A DNA stretch of 64,000 nucleotides from Alphaproteobacteria bacterium. Lineage in GTDB: Bacteria; Pseudomonadota; Alphaproteobacteria; Rs-D84. This document shows positions 10,605 to 40,910 of this stretch, piece after piece. The notes beneath the pieces are model-generated. The model had not been told where the DNA came from and searched no databases. It saw only the letters and a program-made list of their open reading frames with translations. The translations under genes were made by a program, and so were the position numbers. Position 1 is the stretch's first letter; each line of letters starts with the position of its first letter. Location of the stretch: contig JAFVFD010000002.1 of NCBI GenBank assembly GCA_017475605.1, positions 11,769-75,768 on the forward strand, given 5' to 3'.

Positions 10605-11525
10605 TTATTTTTCGCTTAAATACTTTTTCTTTTGTGCGCTTATCATTGGTCGCATAAATACTGGTGATGAATATATCAACGTGTCCCAATCTTGTTCGCT
10701 AAATTGCGCCTTTAACTTCTGCATTTTTTCGGTGTTTTCCCGATCCCTTTTACCAGACATCGCCGAATCTCCGGCCTCCAATGCCAATTCGTGATATTGT
10801 TCCAGTAAAGATTTTTCCTTTGGCTCAATACGTTGTTTTAGTTCTTTTACACCCTGGGCGCGTTCCCATGGTGTTGTCCCATCACAATCGTAGTGGATTG
10901 GTTCAAAATCTTCGCGTTCTATACCGGCGCACATACTGCCAATTTTATGTTCTGCTTGTTCTTCCATTTGTTCGCAAAACTTATCGTGTTCCCACCAGTA
11001 ATTCAGCATAAGTGTTTTTAATGCATCGTCACATGGTTCGCTGGCTCTTTTTCGCGCGATTTTACATATTTCGCCATAATACCACATTTGGCTGCCCGGG
11101 TCGGTATTAAAGCGCATCCAGACAGTATCACTGTCAAGCCAATCGCGATGGATAGATTGCAAATTATGGGTCTTGTCTGCGAATATAACTGCCTGGACAT
11201 CTGCGTCTTGGCATTTACGCAATGCCGCAATAGTGTGTTTTTTACGTTCCATCCAAGATTGAGATTTGTCGGCTTCGGAACACGCGCGAACAATGTCGGC
11301 AACGCGTTTGCCAAAGTTTTTTACCAGTTCCGCGTATGTGGTGTTGGTGTCTTCCAATGTGTCGTGCAGTATGCCCGCAACGATTGCGTTTTCTGATGCC
11401 CCGGCGCGTATCAGCATTTCCATAACCCCCAATGGATGAACAAGGTATGGTATAATGGTTCCCTTGCGCACTTGTGTCGAGTGTTTTTTTGCCGCAAATA
11501 AAACGGCGCGTTGAATTTTATTCAT
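10605..11525 (-). CDS. Stand-alone HD-domain protein of the RelA/SpoT hydrolase type (small alarmone hydrolase-like) with an uncharacterised ~130-aa C-terminal extension
   Basis: AVLFAAKKH...YLVHPLGV...AGILHDTLEDT matches the (p)ppGpp-hydrolase HD signature. The start is taken at MNKIQRAV (11525), internal to ORF 10605..11570. The C-terminal half (WYYGEICK...EQMEEQ...) is not recognisable. Confidence 0.7.
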   Translation of the reverse strand: MNKIQRAVLFAAKKHSTQVRKGTIIPYLVHPLGVMEMLIRAGASENAIVAGILHDTLEDTNTTYAELVKNFGKRVADIVRACSEADKSQSWMERKKHTIAALRKCQDADVQAVIFADKTHNLQSIHRDWLDSDTVWMRFNTDPGSQMWYYGEICKIARKRASEPCDDALKTLMLNYWWEHDKFCEQMEEQAEHKIGSMCAGIEREDFEPIHYDCDGTTPWERAQGVKELKQRIEPKEKSLLEQYHELALEAGDSAMSGKRDRENTEKMQKLKAQFSEQDWDTLIYSSPVFMRPMISAQKKKYLSEK

Positions 11526-11766: not shown

Positions 11767-11843
11767 GCGCCCATGGCTCAATTGGATAGAGCATCTGACT
11801 ACGGATCAGAAGGTTGAGGGTTCGAATCCTTCTGGGCGCGCCA
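11767..11843 (+). tRNA. tRNA-Arg (anticodon ACG)
   Basis: Folded by hand. Acceptor GCGCCCA/TGGGCGC. D-arm GCTC..GAGC. Anticodon stem TCTGA/TCAGA with loop CTACGGA. T-arm GAGGG-TTCGAAT-CCTTC. CCA is encoded. Confidence 0.9.
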
Positions 11844-25486: not shown

Positions 25487-28345
25487 TTGAAACGCATGGT
25501 TTTAGGGCTTTTTGCGTGTTTGTTTGGTGTGTTCGTCGTGAACGTGGCGATGGCTGCGTGTACAGAAAATGAAATTGATGTAACCGGTACCGGCAGTCAA
25601 TGTGAAACAGTAAAATTTACCCTGACAACAACGGAATTGGCGGCAAACGGATCATTAAATATATGGATGTCTGCCAAGGGAACATTCTATATTGATTGTG
25701 GGAAAAATGGTACGTTGTCTGGTGCCGGAACATCTGGTAAAACGCTTACAAAAACAACCAATTTGGTTTCAGAAGTGCAATGTAAATGGTCGTCCGCCGG
25801 TGTACACACGATTCGATTTGGTGGAACCGCGACGGAATATGCCAGTGTTGGTCTTGATGCATCTTCAACCAATGCGGCGATACAATTTGGTACCAGCACA
25901 AATCAGTCAAAAATAGCATCTGTGTCAGGTTCGTTGGGCGCAATGTTCCCGCAATTGGGATCGGCATCGAACCAAGTTCCAAGTTTTGCATCATTATTTG
26001 ATGGGGCCAGCAATTTAACATCTATACCATCGACATTGTTCAGTGGTTTAACCGGCAGTGCCAACGCAAGGTATATGTTTCATGAAACTTTTTCTGGTTG
26101 TACCAGTTTAACATCAATACCGGCGGGATTGTTTGCGGATATTACCACACCTGCCGAGCATATGTTTAATAAAACGTTTAATGGGGATACTAATTTATCT
26201 GGCTTTATACCATGGACTACATTTTCTGGATTGGTTGCAAATAACAGTCCAACCGTTTCAAATATGTGGGTTAATACATTCCAGGGCACCAATTTGGCTA
26301 CGGCTTGTCCAACGGGGTCAACCCAATATACAACCCAATACGAATCCAGTTGGAACAGCAAAATTTCATGTATTTGTGCCGGCGCATACTTTTTTGATGA
26401 TGCGCTGAACACATGCACCCCATGTCCAAATGGCTATGATTATGATACAACCAACGGCAAAACGGATGTAAGCCAGTGCCAAATACAGTGCGCAGCAGGA
26501 ACATATGTCGAAACCCCTGGTGTATATGGTTTTACAGTTCTGGAATATTTGGAAAGCCCCGGTGATGCGTACATTGATACGGGGTTCGTGCACAATTCAG
26601 ACAATATTCGGGGCGAAATTCGTGTTGGGGTATCTGAAAATATCGCGTCAAGCAAGAATTTTAATATAATTGGAAACCAAACAGCCAATGAGGGATATTC
26701 TGTGGGGTGGGCAGACAATCAGTTTAAAGTATGGGTTGTTACCACAGGTCAACGCTTAAGAGGTCCCGATCATCCATTGGTGGCAAATGGCGTGTATGAT
26801 ATTGCGTATGAATTTAAAAATGGTCGGCAATACCTGACAGATGGCAGTGATACAAGAGACATGGCACACGATGGTGGAATTGTGACAGACAAGCCTATAC
26901 ACTTGTTCGATAACGGTGTCCAAGAAATGTCTTATAATTTCAAGGGGCGTGTGTATTGGATACGGTTATATGAAAACAATGTGTTGGTGCATAATTTCCT
27001 GCCGGTGCGTCAAGATGGTACAGATCTGATAGGTATATTTGATACAGTAACAGGAAGCTTCTTTACCAACAGTAATGCCAATAGTCAAAGTGGATTTACA
27101 TATGGTGGCGATTTAAGCAACACATGTGTTGATTCTGGGCGTGGGTATTATGTTGGGCAATCTATAACCAATTTTGGTGATGTCGGCGAACGGATCCCGT
27201 GTCCGATTGGTAAGTATTCCAATAGTCTGCGAGGCACCAGTATCGCATCGTGCCAGAACTGTCAGGGCGCAACATACAACGATGTTACGGGTGCCGCCGA
27301 ATGTGCCGCATGTCCGGCCGGATATACCGATAATATAGACCCAGGTAAAATATCAAAAACACAATGCGAAACCACATGTCCAGGCGGAACGTATATGAGG
27401 TCTGATATGATTAATGGACATACAAAGTTAGAATATATTGTAGCGGAAGGCAAACAATGGATAAATACTAATATTAATGCATCATCATTGGTAAATCCAA
27501 TTATGAAATTGACAACGCAATATACCGCTGTTGAAAAAGGAAAACAAACCGGTGCGAAGAAAAACAATCTTGATTTCAAGGTGGGTATTTCTAATGGCAA
27601 TGTGTTCTTGTGCCAGGCCGGTGGGGCAAATACAGAAACAAAATTTGGTGCCGCTGACACCGCAAAACATACGTTTATATTGGATGCGGGTGCGGGAAAA
27701 TGTTCCCTGGACGACGAAATCAAAGACTTGGCTGTTGGCAATTTAACCGATGGACCCATTTCTATCGGGACGGTGAATAATCAATCTGGCAATGCTGGAA
27801 AACAAAAAATCTTTGCTTTTACTTTGATAAGCAACGGCGTAAAGTTACTGGACTTGATTCCAGTGCTTGATGCAAATGGCGTTGCAGGAATGTATGATGA
27901 GGCCCACGATCGATTTTACGCCAGTGCCGGATCCCAGCCGTTTGTTCAAGGGCCGCGATCAAATTCTAGTGGTTGTATTGATGTTGAACCGGGATATTGG
28001 GCGCCAGAAACTGTGTTAGGATATGGGGAAACAAGCGATCGTAATGAATGTCCGCTGGGAACAACAACGGTTGGATATGGCCATGGCGCAGACGAGGCAT
28101 CTGACTGTGGGCGTGTGTTATATATTGCCAATGGAAAGTTTTATGCGAAAACAATAAAGCCAACAACACCGGCACTAAACCTTATGACCAATGGGGGCGG
28201 TATATTTTACATCTGGGCCAGCCCAACAGACCATACATTATCCAACTTGCACCTGGGATCAATGGAAAATCAATATACGGTATATGATGACAGTTTGTTC
28301 TATGGTGAACGCGATTTTACGACGGACAATCGTATAAACAATTAA
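25487..28345 (+). CDS. Secreted cysteine-rich repeat protein (952 aa), member of the Cys-rich surface protein family
   Basis: Signal peptide LFACLFGVFVVNVAMA. Leucine-rich-repeat-like segment FSGLTGSANARYMF..FSGCTSLTSIPAGLF. Ephrin-receptor-like CxxCP.G.Y modules (CTPCPNGYDY, CQNCQGATYNDVTGAAECAACPAGY). The start may be TTG at 25487 or ATG at 25496. Confidence 0.7.
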   Translation: MKRMVLGLFACLFGVFVVNVAMAACTENEIDVTGTGSQCETVKFTLTTTELAANGSLNIWMSAKGTFYIDCGKNGTLSGAGTSGKTLTKTTNLVSEVQCKWSSAGVHTIRFGGTATEYASVGLDASSTNAAIQFGTSTNQSKIASVSGSLGAMFPQLGSASNQVPSFASLFDGASNLTSIPSTLFSGLTGSANARYMFHETFSGCTSLTSIPAGLFADITTPAEHMFNKTFNGDTNLSGFIPWTTFSGLVANNSPTVSNMWVNTFQGTNLATACPTGSTQYTTQYESSWNSKISCICAGAYFFDDALNTCTPCPNGYDYDTTNGKTDVSQCQIQCAAGTYVETPGVYGFTVLEYLESPGDAYIDTGFVHNSDNIRGEIRVGVSENIASSKNFNIIGNQTANEGYSVGWADNQFKVWVVTTGQRLRGPDHPLVANGVYDIAYEFKNGRQYLTDGSDTRDMAHDGGIVTDKPIHLFDNGVQEMSYNFKGRVYWIRLYENNVLVHNFLPVRQDGTDLIGIFDTVTGSFFTNSNANSQSGFTYGGDLSNTCVDSGRGYYVGQSITNFGDVGERIPCPIGKYSNSLRGTSIASCQNCQGATYNDVTGAAECAACPAGYTDNIDPGKISKTQCETTCPGGTYMRSDMINGHTKLEYIVAEGKQWINTNINASSLVNPIMKLTTQYTAVEKGKQTGAKKNNLDFKVGISNGNVFLCQAGGANTETKFGAADTAKHTFILDAGAGKCSLDDEIKDLAVGNLTDGPISIGTVNNQSGNAGKQKIFAFTLISNGVKLLDLIPVLDANGVAGMYDEAHDRFYASAGSQPFVQGPRSNSSGCIDVEPGYWAPETVLGYGETSDRNECPLGTTTVGYGHGADEASDCGRVLYIANGKFYAKTIKPTTPALNLMTNGGGIFYIWASPTDHTLSNLHLGSMENQYTVYDDSLFYGERDFTTDNRINN

Positions 28346-28433: not shown

Positions 28434-28517
28434 ATGAAATTAAACATAAAAAAATCTTTGTAATTGATGGTGCGACCAGAATAATGACGGACGCACCGCT
28501 TTGTGCGTCCGTTTTTT
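28434..28517 (+). promoter_or_regulatory. Putative leader-peptide transcription attenuator of lysS. It has a 9-codon Lys-rich leader ORF (MKLNIKKSL), then alternative antiterminator and terminator structures
   Basis: Leader ORF at 28434..28463 has 3 of 9 codons as AAA. GGTGCG (28469..28474) can pair with CGCACC (28492..28497). That pairing competes with the terminator stem GGACGCAC/GTGCGTCC (28489..28510), which is followed by GTTTTTT. Only ~30 nt separate the terminator from the lysS ATG, leaving no room for a separate promoter. Confidence 0.4.
28489..28517 (+). terminator. Intrinsic terminator 30 nt upstream of the lysS start (attenuator terminator)
   Basis: 8-bp GC-rich stem GGACGCAC-cgcttt-GTGCGTCC followed by GTTTTTT. 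Confidence 0.7.
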
Positions 28518-28547: not shown

Positions 28548-30014
28548 ATGTCAGAAAACGCAACAATATCGACGAATGAATTACAGGCCCGTTTACAAAA
28601 GGCTGAAAATATCCGCGCGCGTGATGGTGTTGTATGGAAAGATACATTTGATCGTTCACATACAATTGCGGACGCGCGTAATTTGCCGGATGGAACCGCC
28701 GTTAAATTATGTGGACGTGTTACTGCGTTGCGTTGGTTGGGCAAATTGATGTTTGGCCGTATTTACGATATAAATGGCGAAATTCAGTTTTCTATGTCGC
28801 GTGAAGAAATTGGCGAAGAAGATTACAAGTTTATGAAGGCCAATGTTGATATGGGCGATTTTATTGGTGTTACCGGTGAATTATACCACACAACTGCGGG
28901 CGAATTGACTGTCAAGGTTTCGCACTATGATATTCTGTCCAAGGCATTGCGTCCGTTGCCGGAAAAGTTCCATGGCCTTACCGATACCGAGGCACGCTAT
29001 CGTCAACGTTATTTGGACGTAATTTCGAATCCTGAATCCCGTAACGCGTTGTTGGGCCGTTTCAAAATGACACAAAACTGGCGGCAATTTATGATTGATA
29101 ACGGCTTTTTGGAAATTGAAACACCAATTTTACAAAATGTTGCGTCTGGGGCGGCGGCAAAGCCTTTTACCACACACCATAACGCGTTGGACGCAGATTT
29201 TCAGTTGCGTATTTCGCCGGAATTGTTCTTGAAAATGGCAATTGGCGCGGGTTTTGACCGCGTGTTCGAAGTTGCAAAAGATTTCCGCAACGAAGGTATG
29301 GATGCGATGCACCTGCAAGAATTCACAATGGTTGAATGGTATGCGGCATATTGGGATTACAAGAAGAATATTGATTTTACATGGCGATTGATTCAACACC
29401 TGATTAAATCTGCACGTGGTACATTACAGATTTCATACCAGGGAACAGAATTAGATTTTTCAAAGTATGAAATGATGGATTACACCGCGAAAATGAATGA
29501 ATTGTTCGGATGTAATATTTTGGACTTTGATGATTTAGATGCGTTAAAGAAGCAACTGGTTGATTCCGGTATGTTCCCGGCCGAAGATTTGGAAAATCTT
29601 AATTCTATACCTGTATTGGTGGACTGGGTTTACAAACGCAAAATCCGCGACAGTATTGTTAAGCCAACATTCCTGTATAACTATCCAACATATATGGTAC
29701 CATTGGCGCGACACAGTGATGCCGATGACAGATGCCTTGATATGTTCCAATTGTTGGTATGCGGTGCCGAATTGTGCAAGGGGTATTCAGAATTGGTTAA
29801 CCCAATTCAGCAATTGGCGGCATTTGAACAACAGGCCAAAAACATTGCCAACGGCGATGAAGAAGCATTTAACCCAGATAACGACTTTGTGCGCGCGATG
29901 GAACATGGTTTCCCACCGATTTCCGGGGTTGGCCTTGGGGTTGACAGATTGGCCAGCATTATATTTGACCAGCCGACATTACGTGATGTCATATTGTTCC
30001 CAATGATGAAATAG
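28548..30014 (+). CDS. lysS: Lysyl-tRNA synthetase (class II)
   Basis: N-terminal OB anticodon-binding domain. Class II motifs: FRNEGMDAMHLQEFTMVEWY (motif 2) and GVGLGVDRL (motif 3). Confidence 0.95.
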   Translation: MSENATISTNELQARLQKAENIRARDGVVWKDTFDRSHTIADARNLPDGTAVKLCGRVTALRWLGKLMFGRIYDINGEIQFSMSREEIGEEDYKFMKANVDMGDFIGVTGELYHTTAGELTVKVSHYDILSKALRPLPEKFHGLTDTEARYRQRYLDVISNPESRNALLGRFKMTQNWRQFMIDNGFLEIETPILQNVASGAAAKPFTTHHNALDADFQLRISPELFLKMAIGAGFDRVFEVAKDFRNEGMDAMHLQEFTMVEWYAAYWDYKKNIDFTWRLIQHLIKSARGTLQISYQGTELDFSKYEMMDYTAKMNELFGCNILDFDDLDALKKQLVDSGMFPAEDLENLNSIPVLVDWVYKRKIRDSIVKPTFLYNYPTYMVPLARHSDADDRCLDMFQLLVCGAELCKGYSELVNPIQQLAAFEQQAKNIANGDEEAFNPDNDFVRAMEHGFPPISGVGLGVDRLASIIFDQPTLRDVILFPMMK

Positions 30015-30024
30015 GGCAATCAAG

Positions 30025-31422
30025 ATGATTTCTAAATCTGATACTTTTGCGGTTGATTTAACCGCAGATCACGACAGGAAAAACCTGGCCGATATTGAAC
30101 ACGCACTGGCCGAACACCGTATTAACGAAGAAGCGGCCGAATACCTGCGGTCCCTGTATTCCGACGGGATGGATTGGTTCCGTGAAGTGTTTCATGTCCT
30201 GGGTAAATGCCTTGGCGCGCCCAAGGCACCCGTTGTGCGTTATGATTATGAAAACGATTGTGGTGTTGATGAACAGATTAAAATATCTGATATTAACCCA
30301 TTGTCGCCATATCTTGTCCAGCATCGTTTGGACATGGACCCAATGCGTAATCAGTTCTTTACGGTTACCGCCGGACACCAGGTTGATTTGTCGGTGTCGT
30401 CTATTGTTACGGTTATTGTTGCTGCACAAAAACGCACAGAACGCGCACTGGAAAAAATTACGGGAAAATATTATCGGGACTATGTTAACGATGTTGCAAC
30501 AACCGCTGAACGCGTTATAACTGCGCACGAACGCGCGGCATCTGGGCGCGCAATCGCCGAAAAAATACGTGAAGAGTTTTCTGATAAGTTTATAACATCT
30601 GCACCAGAAACTGTATTAAAGATTATCGGTCGCGGCCACGAACAAATTGCCGTAGATTTAGTGCGCGAATTGGATAAAATTGAAAAGCCGCATTTAAGAT
30701 TGCAAGATGTTTGGCGCGTGAAGTGTTTGTTTGATTTGGTGCCCCAGGCGCGTACATTCATAGAACGCATCCGCGAAGCGATGCCGGAACGCATTATTTC
30801 CATGCGGGACAAGTTTTATGATATGGACAACCCACGTAATTATCGTGATGCCAAAATTATTTTGAATATTGGGCATGACGGCGGGCCGGTTATACCAATG
30901 GAAATTATATGCCAGGTGCGTACGTTCTTTGAATTTGAACGCATGACGCACATTCAATATGAACGCGCGCGCAAACGCAAAAACGCGGCCAGTGATAACA
31001 TAGAACGCAAATTGGCAGATTATATGGAAGATGGCATCAAAGAATACAACCTTATGATTTGTCGCTGTGTCGAGGCTTTGTTTGACCGCGTTGGGTGGAA
31101 TATTTTGTATGAACGCGGAATCGGCATGTCGCTTTTCGAAGGGTTCCCAAAGAATTGCACCTTGTATTATCCGCAAAAGATGTTGGATATCATTACCGAT
31201 AAATTGGATAACGCGATTGAAAACGAAGTGTTTCGCCTTACCACTTCGCCCGCGAAATTAACCCAGGCCCAAACAAGCGAAATCTTTCACTTTATGGCGC
31301 GGTTTATTTTGGTTGCGGCGATGCCATATCGTAAATCGGCATGGTCTGCGCCGACGAATACACCGGCGGGCAAATTATTTAATTTCGTTATGAAGGAAGT
31401 TCAACGTTATTACAAACAATAA
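30025..31422 (+). CDS. Orphan 465-aa protein whose central region carries a divergent RelA/SpoT-like (pol-beta-fold) nucleotidyltransferase signature. Possible alarmone-synthetase-like or toxSAS-like enzyme
   Basis: WRVKCLFDLVPQAR matches RVKS..yDllGiR. DKFYDMDNPRNYRDAKIIL matches DYIa.PK.nGYqSlH. GGPVIPMEIICQVRT matches E[IV]QIRT. FEFERMTHIQYE matches AE...H..YK. The N-terminal ~220 aa and C-terminal ~130 aa are unrecognised. A 10-nt gap follows lysS. Confidence 0.45.
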   Translation: MISKSDTFAVDLTADHDRKNLADIEHALAEHRINEEAAEYLRSLYSDGMDWFREVFHVLGKCLGAPKAPVVRYDYENDCGVDEQIKISDINPLSPYLVQHRLDMDPMRNQFFTVTAGHQVDLSVSSIVTVIVAAQKRTERALEKITGKYYRDYVNDVATTAERVITAHERAASGRAIAEKIREEFSDKFITSAPETVLKIIGRGHEQIAVDLVRELDKIEKPHLRLQDVWRVKCLFDLVPQARTFIERIREAMPERIISMRDKFYDMDNPRNYRDAKIILNIGHDGGPVIPMEIICQVRTFFEFERMTHIQYERARKRKNAASDNIERKLADYMEDGIKEYNLMICRCVEALFDRVGWNILYERGIGMSLFEGFPKNCTLYYPQKMLDIITDKLDNAIENEVFRLTTSPAKLTQAQTSEIFHFMARFILVAAMPYRKSAWSAPTNTPAGKLFNFVMKEVQRYYKQ

Positions 31423-31581
31423 TGTGTTGAAAATACTTAAAATATACAATCGCCCCATGGGAAATAAATCGTACAGGGGCGATTGTTTTTTTCTTGTGTT
31501 AGTTTTAATATTGCGCAACAATGAAATCAGGTTCATGGACAGTTACCCAGAACCATAACAAGCATAAGAAAGGAAACGATT

Positions 31582-31923
31582 ATGCGTCAAGGGAAAGTAA
31601 AATGGTATAATGGCAAAAAATGTTTCGGCTTTATTACGCCGGACGCGCCAAATGAAAACGGAAACACAGATGATGTATTTGTTCATTCCAGTGCATTAAA
31701 AGCAGCGGGTATCAGATTCTTGAATGAAAACGATATCGTTGAATTCGAAGAAGAAGTCCGTAATGACAAATTGTCGGTAACAACATTGAAATTGATTCAG
31801 CGTGACGAAGAATCGGCACGTCTGTTCCACGAACGTCGCGCGGAACGTCGCCGCGCCGCCGAAGACCGAAAACAGCGCGAAGAAAAATCAACGCGCCATG
31901 GATTCGCGTTCTGGAAAAAATAA
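31582..31923 (+). CDS. Cold-shock-domain protein (CspA family) with a C-terminal basic extension
   Basis: GKVKWYNGKKCFGFI...DVFVHSSAL, with RNP1/RNP2-like motifs. Arg/Glu-rich tail. Confidence 0.9.
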   Translation: MRQGKVKWYNGKKCFGFITPDAPNENGNTDDVFVHSSALKAAGIRFLNENDIVEFEEEVRNDKLSVTTLKLIQRDEESARLFHERRAERRRAAEDRKQREEKSTRHGFAFWKK

Positions 31924-39758: not shown

Positions 39759-40910
39759 ATGCAAACACCAAAATTTTTACGCAATTTATTACAATCTAAT
39801 AACTATTGGAATAAAAATAGTACTGAATTCGCAAAAGCAAATGAATATCTGGAAAAGTTATATCCAGTGCAACTGTCCGCTGATTTATCAGGAAGATTTG
39901 TTGAACCGCCATACGATATGACCCTGGAACAATTTGAAAGCGCACAACGGCAATTCGACAAAGATTTGGAAGATGCGATTCATGAAGCAGAAGATTCAGT
40001 AGATGATGCAAATGGAACAGCAGAGCCAATTGACTATGACCAATATGTAGATATTGAAGAAACGATAGATGTTCGTGTTTTGATGCCAGGTGGAAATATA
40101 GAATATATGCAACTTGTCGTATATATGTTGAATTTGCCTGATGATGACACTGATGTGGAACTGGAACCAGATAAAACACAAAGGATTTGGATATGGCACA
40201 GCGAAGAAGACGAAAATGTTTGCGATGATTGTGTATCACACGATGACGAAGTATTCGAAGACAAAGACGATATTCCAGAAATTCCCGTGCATCCTAACTG
40301 TCGTTGTTGGGTTGAAGAAGTAAAGTTAGATGACAACGGTAAACCTATTTCAAGTAAAGCATACAAAGGGCAAAAGCCAGAAATACCGAAAAATGACAAA
40401 GAACCTCAGTCAGAAAAAACGCCAACTTTTGATAAACCTGTTGATATAAAAGAAGGTCAATATGCCACATTTGACGGGAAAAATCTGACTATATTTCAAG
40501 ACGGCAAAGTTGTTGCTTCGTGGAATGCGGTATCAGGTCGTCCAGAGTATCAAAGTCCAGAATATCAAAATCTAAAATCCACAGGTCCAATTCCAGAAGG
40601 TGCATATGTAGCAAGACAAGAAAAATTACAACATATGTCACCAGCAGATTGGGCAATTGGATGGTCCAGAGTTCTGGGAAATAAATTTGGTGGGAAATGG
40701 CCGGGTTCATCTGTTTCTTGGGGAAATTCTCGCGTATGGCTGGAACCTTCAAAAGAAACAAACACTTTTGGACGTGACAAATTCAGTATTCACGGAGGCT
40801 TGTTTCCTGGTTCTGCAGGTTGTATAGATTTGACGGACCAAATAAACTCTTTTACATCTTGGTTGGAAAGTACTGGAAAAGATTTACTGATATATGTAAA
40901 ATATAAATAA
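39759..40910 (+). CDS. Fusion protein with polymorphic-toxin architecture: a MuF-like C-terminal motif (CxxC...HPNCRC) plus a C-terminal L,D-transpeptidase/YkuD-like domain
   Basis: Start taken at MQTPKF with an AAGGAG Shine-Dalgarno (the ORF track starts earlier, at 39645). VCDDCVSHDDEVF...IPVHPNCRCWV resembles the phage Mu F / SPP1 gp7 C-terminal signature. The C-terminus FSIHGGLFPGSAGCIDL resembles the L,D-transpeptidase His...Cys active-site motif. No signal peptide. Confidence 0.5.
   Translation: MQTPKFLRNLLQSNNYWNKNSTEFAKANEYLEKLYPVQLSADLSGRFVEPPYDMTLEQFESAQRQFDKDLEDAIHEAEDSVDDANGTAEPIDYDQYVDIEETIDVRVLMPGGNIEYMQLVVYMLNLPDDDTDVELEPDKTQRIWIWHSEEDENVCDDCVSHDDEVFEDKDDIPEIPVHPNCRCWVEEVKLDDNGKPISSKAYKGQKPEIPKNDKEPQSEKTPTFDKPVDIKEGQYATFDGKNLTIFQDGKVVASWNAVSGRPEYQSPEYQNLKSTGPIPEGAYVARQEKLQHMSPADWAIGWSRVLGNKFGGKWPGSSVSWGNSRVWLEPSKETNTFGRDKFSIHGGLFPGSAGCIDLTDQINSFTSWLESTGKDLLIYVKYK

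Follow-up and report, generated by a model that had tools for sequence, protein, structure and literature searches.

Investigating a stretch of 64,000 nucleotides from an Alphaproteobacteria bacterium of the lineage Rs-D84 (assembly GCA_017475605.1, contig JAFVFD010000002.1, forward-strand positions 11,769 to 75,768; hereafter the window), we found that the gene directly downstream of lysS, here called X (positions 30025..31422), encodes a protein of a new and divergent family with the fold of the RelA/SpoT homologue (RSH) synthetases. Judged from its sequence, X seems to be an active housekeeping pyrophosphokinase of this fold, a reading to which we give a probability of roughly 55%; it is read as active because the residues performing the RSH chemistry are those that survive the deepest divergence within the family. 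Two parts of the family can be distinguished: the Candidatus Enterousia clade together with a few members at 35-59% identity (P0121-P0126), and a distant branch at 16-23% identity (P0153-P0170; 456-687 amino acids) from metagenome-assembled genomes (MAGs) of Alphaproteobacteria, in which no Pfam domain was found.

The AlphaFold2 model of X (predicted local distance difference test, pLDDT, 76.5; predicted template modelling score, pTM, 0.67) contains a central beta-alpha-beta-beta-beta-alpha core. Searching this model against the PDB with Foldseek, we obtained about 45 top matches, all of them RelA/SpoT-type synthetases (weak E values of 3.9e-3 and up, but a probability of ~1); DNA polymerase beta was listed only at E 0.24. 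CapRel, FaRel and Tas1 share this fold, and among the matches Tas1 has the highest identity (17-19%). The high-confidence model of a distant relative, P0168, superposes on 172 of the 188 residues of RelQ. According to these models X has the alpha/beta RSH synthetase fold in the form known from small alarmone synthetases (SAS). An initial annotation, made from the sequence alone, had described X as a divergent RelA/SpoT-like nucleotidyltransferase (NTase) retaining the catalytic Asp and Glu, and had proposed structure prediction as a check; no unrelated fold emerged from it. The fold and both residues stand, the Asp however at another position (D228, not D237).

The register of residues 228-317 of X against RSH proteins is the same in the hhalign and HMMER alignments. 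LQ-D228-VWRVK of X falls on MQ-D72-IAGLR of RelQ, the strand of the Mg2+-binding Asp; R261-D262-KFY corresponds to R105-D106-YI (the RDYI motif), and N-Y273-R-D-A-K277 to G-Y116-R-S-Y-H120, with Y273 at the site of the acceptor-stacking Tyr and K277 at the His position. M-E293-I aligns to V-E139-I, which holds the catalytic Glu, and T-H309-IQ-Y312 to the following H/Y helix. Across 19 sequences, which reach as low as 16% identity, D228, R231, Y273, K277, E293, H309 and Y312 never vary, and K136, R140 and K144 are likewise invariant across both branches. In FaRel2, the equivalent Asp coordinating Mg2+ and the Tyr stacking the acceptor were found to be essential by the mutations D90G and Y128A (10.1101/2021.04.30.441581). 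X retains D228, Y273 and E293 at the positions of the Mg2+-binding Asp, the acceptor-stacking Tyr and the catalytic Glu, respectively. Loss of the Asp or Glu from orthologs, which the initial annotation had named as speaking against its assignment, was not seen, D228 and E293 being invariant in both branches. Three of its motif blocks agree with our register, in which RDYI..GYRSYH is matched by RDKFY..NYRDAK, the strand of ExQxRT by that of E293, and the H..Y helix by TH309IQY312E. Two others had been misplaced: WRVKC (residues 230-234), taken for the RxKS block, lies on the strand following the catalytic Asp, and FDLVPQAR, taken for the DxxGxR block, contributes D237 and R243, neither of which is conserved in the distant branch.

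An equivalent of the block that holds the ATP phosphates can be proposed upstream of this core. K136, R140 and K144 (in AQKRTERALEK), which follow the strand 127-132, show the same i/i+4/i+8 pattern as K48/S52/K56 of RelQ (GRVKPVASILEK), and the P0168 model shows the strand-Lys-helix layout as well (strand 130-134, K138, helix 140-169). From this pattern and topology, we infer that K136/R140/K144 represent a re-made RxKS-type block, which does without the canonical Arg.

Taken as an enzyme, X would transfer the beta,gamma-pyrophosphate of ATP in a Mg2+-dependent reaction onto the 3'-OH of a purine-nucleotide-type acceptor. In this reaction K136, R140 and K144, together with R231/K233, would hold the phosphates of ATP; Y273 would provide the stacking surface for the acceptor base, and activation of the acceptor 3'-OH would fall to E293. 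We favour a free purine nucleotide as the acceptor, with a (p)ppGpp- or (p)ppApp-type alarmone as the product, and place tRNA's 3'-CCA end second, in view of the lysS operon and the basic core. The N-terminal module, the insertion of 80 residues and the C-terminal bundle (see below) would probably provide regulation or partner binding, and a common transcript with lysyl-tRNA synthetase (LysRS) would tie the dosage of X to the translation apparatus.

Sequence comparison with RSH proteins became informative once the distant branch was added to the alignment. A narrow profile of the clade compared by hhalign with three SAS sequences yielded a non-significant E of 0.25, whereas the wide family alignment, distant branch included, matched RSH reference sequences verified against the PDB (RelQ 5ded, 2be3, 3l9d, RelSeq 1vj7, Rel 7oiw, 6yxa and 5xnx) with P values of 0.0018 and 0.0014, the alignments covering up to 176 columns. 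An RSH hidden Markov model (HMM) of seven sequences was run unfiltered over 6,816 segments of open reading frames (ORFs) from the window and 92 loci. Of the 92 family ORFs it matched 90, and the first 35 ranks went exclusively to family members (best E 6.7e-4); the copy of X in the window itself reached an E of only 0.44. Only two more divergent relatives matched PF04607 (RelA_SpoT; gathering score 27 bits) in the expected region, yet below threshold: P0126 scored 15.0 bits (E 0.031), while P0123 scored 13.4 bits (E 0.096).

Beyond the core, X carries family-specific parts (Table 1). Within the N-terminal module, both branches keep N20, I24, I33, Y45 and M49 without exception. The insertion, for which RelQ has about 16 residues and most of which is missing from the distant branch, comprises the helices 148-166, 171-187, 193-201 and 206-217 and carries a clade-specific IIG(R/S/K/G)GHE segment at residues 200-206. 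The C-terminal region 318-465 is conserved throughout the Enterousia clade, with Y341 and N342 nearly invariant in both branches, and may be a regulatory or oligomerisation module. Neither a signal nor a secretion-associated domain was found in X, in line with the initial annotation, which had seen no signal peptide. It was also observed that most proteins of the distant branch (P0153-P0170; for example, L089 5472..6881) end in a basic K/R-x-R tail (..NRGR, ..KKAR, ..QKSR, ..EKDR, ..TKDR, ..QKGR, ..KKER), where the Enterousia clade has YYKK or YYKQ instead.

X had been called an orphan, but a word-indexed search returned 615 homologs, the best 120 of which are proteins of about 466 amino acids at 67-99% identity, named 'hypothetical protein', from MAGs of uncultured Alphaproteobacteria. 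Scanning one genome per species, we found the gene in 284 species genomes, assigned to Candidatus Enterousia or to uncultured gut or rumen Alphaproteobacteria. When 1.84 billion cluster representatives were searched exhaustively with an HMM, only 51 clusters were found, and the family is therefore narrow. Candidatus Enterousia belongs to the order Rs-D84, with genomes of 0.75-1.0 Mb and about 820-1,195 genes (PMC12306168). Compared with eight close relatives, the ratio of nonsynonymous to synonymous substitution rates (dN/dS) of X amounts to 0.044-0.075, that of lysS to 0.031-0.050; X is under strong purifying selection. The family HMM detected no paralog of X within the window. X is a single-copy, vertically inherited housekeeping core gene of the reduced-genome Candidatus Enterousia, that is, of organisms with some 900 genes, in which little dispensable sequence survives.

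As the initial annotation stated, X follows lysS directly, with 10 nucleotides between the TAG stop of lysS and the start of X. The intrinsic terminator behind X precedes a cold-shock-domain (CSD) gene and closes the unit on its 3' side, and a hairpin ending about 35 nucleotides 5' of the lysS start forms the 5' boundary; the latter may be the terminator of the upstream gene for a 952-residue protein or a leader or attenuator of lysS-X. Given the short gap and the hairpins on both sides, lysS and X look like one transcription unit, a two-gene operon with lysS in front. The GC content around X (0.43) is the same as in the flanks. Among 86 related loci, lysS lies immediately 5' of X in all except one, which is cut by a contig end, and the gap is about 4-34 nucleotides. 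The CSD gene follows in 74 of the 86 (at 83-99% protein identity) and LemA and rpsD come after it less regularly, so that the conserved order reads lysS-X-CSD-LemA-rpsD. The 952-residue protein was matched in only nine of the 86 loci (three of them near full length, at about 80% identity); the region 5' of lysS is therefore variable, lysS-X fixed. The linkage to lysS, whose conservation the initial annotation had wished to see checked, thus holds among these loci, but it is gone in the members at 35-47% identity, which neighbour Peptidase_U32, GIY-YIG, a CdiA_C-like ORF or SMC_N instead. Distant-branch members lie in ordinary chromosomal contexts, next to tRNA_edit and RND or to Sel1 and MlaA/C. 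A phage or plasmid origin of this branch was considered and rejected, the contexts being chromosomal and Gram-negative-like (RND, MlaA/MlaC) and the named members coming from Alphaproteobacteria MAGs.

Three neighbours of relatives should be mentioned separately: a CdiA_C-like ORF of 117 amino acids (L087 5379..5732) upstream of P0126, a YbaK-type tRNA_edit gene (L089 4841..5314) divergent from P0153, and a gene for a Sel1-repeat protein (L091 2116..3243) just downstream of P0160. Each was seen once and therefore gives no evidence of a conserved partnership.

Several observations weigh against X as an active pyrophosphokinase. The confidence of its model is only moderate (pLDDT 76.5). X and 35 clade members gave nothing significant in Pfam, NCBIfam, PADLOC, PHROGs and the PDB sequences (phmmer, hmmsearch), and PF04607, with which the initial annotation had suggested searching, matched neither X nor any of the 35 members even at E<=10. 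(Matches of X to MpsC, with an E of 0.0021 below the cutoff, and to ThrH were treated as noise.) In the DxxGxR motif, R231 stands in place of the Gly and K233, which is Thr or Ser in the distant branch, in place of the Arg; the ExQxR strand reads E-I-I-C-Q-V-R in the Enterousia clade, with Ile295 at the Gln position; and Ala134 occupies the place of the RxKS Arg. Moreover, hhalign put RxKS not on K136/R140/K144 but on the clade-specific IIGRGHE (200-206), a candidate that we rejected, since this segment is absent from the distant branch and residue 203 varies. Finally, the absence of lysS linkage in relatives at 35-47% identity means that this linkage may be frozen synteny rather than functional coupling, so that, solid as co-transcription with lysS is within Enterousia, a functional coupling of X to LysRS should be regarded as a conjecture from gene order.

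These gaps feed the reading of X as a dead pseudo-enzyme, or as an NTase fold put to other chemistry (nucleotidyl transfer, or binding of an Ap4A-like LysRS product), either sensing nucleotides or assisting LysRS or the ribosome as a structural or regulatory partner. The losses in RxKS, DxxGxR and, in Enterousia, ExQ are accompanied by family-specific N-terminal, inserted and C-terminal modules which make up more than half of X, and such a role would fit the tight operon with lysS. Yet the Asp, the Glu, the stacking Tyr and the basic set are invariant at 16-23% identity, which is unexpected for a dead scaffold, and a canonical E-x-Q-x-K strand persists in the distant branch. We regard a dead or differently employed enzyme as unlikely, though the absence of several motif residues still lends it real weight.

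If X is an active pyrophosphokinase, its acceptor might by analogy also be an RNA. X would then be a housekeeping tRNA 3'-CCA pyrophosphokinase or another modifier of RNA ends, perhaps acting on tRNA-Lys and restraining charging in a regulated, physiological manner rather than as a toxin. CapRel and FaRel2 pyrophosphorylate the 3' adenosine of tRNA, and such an activity would explain the fixed operon with lysS. The characterised RSH proteins with this activity are, however, all growth-arresting toxins which need an antitoxin, and none lies beside X; the linkage to lysS vanishes in deeper relatives, the lone tRNA_edit neighbour is anecdotal, and no RNA-binding domain was detected in X. This makes RNA a rather improbable acceptor.

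A bolder proposal can be attached to either acceptor: X could be the one alarmone-type synthetase of its lineage, or else a tRNA(Lys) CCA-pyrophosphokinase with a physiological, non-toxic role, and would in both cases represent a minimal stringent-response device invented anew, firmly wired to the expression of LysRS in genomes of <1 Mb and built on an RSH fold too divergent for HMM-based censuses. No canonical long Rel/SpoT was found in the DNA covered, which consists of the 64-kb window and the related loci with ±6 kb. Reasoning from sequence, we consider this proposal speculative and quite improbable; if it were true, RSH-type signalling would be wider than catalogued, and the pyrophosphorylation of tRNA or nucleotides would have a housekeeping role outside toxins.

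The window also holds an HD hydrolase of the RelA/SpoT type, as the initial annotation had noticed, and its matches to HD_4 and 7qoe (Table 1) identify it as a genuine protein of the small alarmone hydrolase (SAH) type. The protein carries a C-terminal extension of about 130 residues. Its full-length homologs form about 17 clusters, followed by SAHs of about 180 amino acids from Bacillaceae and others at about 50% identity over the HD half, which suggests a patchy distribution or a horizontal acquisition within an Enterousia subclade. Given this protein, the organism can probably hydrolyse 3'-pyrophosphorylated nucleotides. It had been offered as a partner of X; lying 19 kb away and present in about 17 clusters as compared to 284 species, it is therefore not a dedicated one.

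The same annotation had further thought of a toxSAS-type module (a toxin with SAS fold), and we find it highly improbable that X is such a toxin, belongs to the fused CapRel-type defence proteins or acts as a Tas1-type effector: the fold shared with CapRel, FaRel and Tas1, the extra C-terminal domain as in fused CapRel, the SAH-type hydrolase in the window, the small CdiA_C-like ORF adjoining one 35%-identical relative and the Sel1-repeat gene after one distant relative would fit, but X is core in 284 species within a housekeeping neighbourhood, its dN/dS is comparable with that of lysS and its base composition is that of the flanks, no small antitoxin- or immunity-like ORF adjoins it (the neighbours lie 10 nucleotides away and past the terminator), neither PADLOC nor PHROG matches nor a secretion or PAAR-type domain were found in X, the context is not mobile, and the SAH is distant and rare. 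From the toxSAS, CapRel and FaRel2 tRNA pyrophosphokinases X hence differs in lacking an antitoxin gene, a prophage or defence-island context and a PADLOC match; in place of their patchy, mobile distribution, it is syntenic in the species genomes of one lineage. From Tas1, a (p)ppApp-synthesising effector, it differs in having neither a delivery domain nor an adjoining immunity-like gene.

Returning to X as an active pyrophosphokinase, the difference from the known synthetases is considerable. With the RelQ/RelP type of SAS (B. subtilis YjbM, 5dec/5ded; S. aureus RelP, 6ewz) X shares 9-16% identity. It is more than twice as long as these, adding the N-terminal module of 126 residues, the 80-residue insertion and the three-helix bundle, it does without the RxKS Arg and the DxxGxR Gly (in Enterousia also the ExQ Gln is replaced), and it is restricted to uncultured gut Alphaproteobacteria, where it is fixed in the lysS operon. 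Unlike the long RSH proteins Rel, RelA and SpoT, X lacks the HD hydrolase, TGS, ZFD and ACT/RRM domains as well as the ribosome-binding C-terminal region, and its motifs differ. An HMM-based catalogue divides the RSH superfamily into 30 SAS, 11 SAH and 13 long-RSH subfamilies (PMC7229694). Since PF04607 and all libraries searched here miss the family of X, it has probably escaped censuses of this HMM-based kind as well, and we found no report in the literature of a structure-based discovery of new SAS families. The family of X is a new RSH family, which is cryptic in sequence and recognisable by structure: it escapes the PF04607 definition and has a different three-part architecture and setting. 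Should X be active, alarmone signalling would extend to a new lineage and a new sequence space, or RSH chemistry would be used in a non-toxic way on another acceptor.

Table 1. Gene X, its parts and further features of the window (nucleotide positions in the window; residues refer to X).
Feature	Position	Strand	Remarks
Gene X	30025..31422	+	ATG start, 465 aa; new divergent family, predicted RelA/SpoT (RSH) synthetase fold
Residues 1-126	30025..30402	+	N-terminal module: three helices, beta-hairpins, disordered loop 106-125; acidic, isoelectric point 4.8
Residues 127-146	30403..30462	+	strand 127-132, helix 138-146; proposed equivalent of RSH 'GRxKxxxSIxxK'
Residues 147-227	30463..30705	+	helical insertion of ~80 aa between RxK-like helix and catalytic-Asp strand
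Residues 228-317	30706..30975	+	catalytic core, beta-alpha-beta-beta-beta-alpha; R231 and K233 on the D228 strand
Codon of D228	30706-30708	+
Codon of Y273	30841-30843	+
Codon of E293	30901-30903	+
Residues 318-465	30976..31419	+	long helix 321-362, like the SAS C-terminal helix, then family-specific three-helix bundle
lysS	28548..30014	+	class II lysyl-tRNA synthetase, 488 aa; Pfam tRNA-synt_2 1.5e-73, tRNA_anti-codon (OB) 3.9e-09
Intrinsic terminator after X	31446..31492	+	11-bp GC-rich stem, then U7; free energy -23.9 kcal/mol, z -4.1 against shuffles
Hairpin between 952-aa ORF and lysS	28486..28513	+	11 bp, GC-rich, then T-run; terminator-like site
Promoter-like site	28458..28485	+	immediately 5' of the preceding hairpin; consensus match only
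Gene of 952-aa protein	25487..28345	+	just 5' of lysS
CSD gene	31582..31923	+	113 aa
SAH-type HD hydrolase	10605..11525	-	HD_4 1.3e-20; best PDB match 7qoe (204-aa HD protein), 6e-30
Giant ORF, 2,859 aa	46432..55011	-	only Pfam match Listeria-Bacteroides repeat (Flg_new)
Giant ORF, 2,898 aa	55104..63800	-	adjacent to the former; only Pfam match Listeria-Bacteroides repeat (Flg_new)

Some further features of the window deserve mention. The CSD protein encoded behind X possesses a basic, Arg/Glu/Lys-rich C-terminal tail of about 45 residues after the CSD, and the 952-residue protein encoded in front of lysS is rich in Cys, has a hydrophobic segment resembling a signal at its N-terminus and matches Ephrin_rec_like weakly. 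The two giant ORFs, which probably encode surface or adhesin proteins, fill about 17 kb of a genome likely to be smaller than 1 Mb. Between positions 40001 and 42000, the GC content dips to 0.35 as compared to about 0.43-0.47 elsewhere, and this segment with its several small ORFs may represent an island or DNA of recent acquisition.

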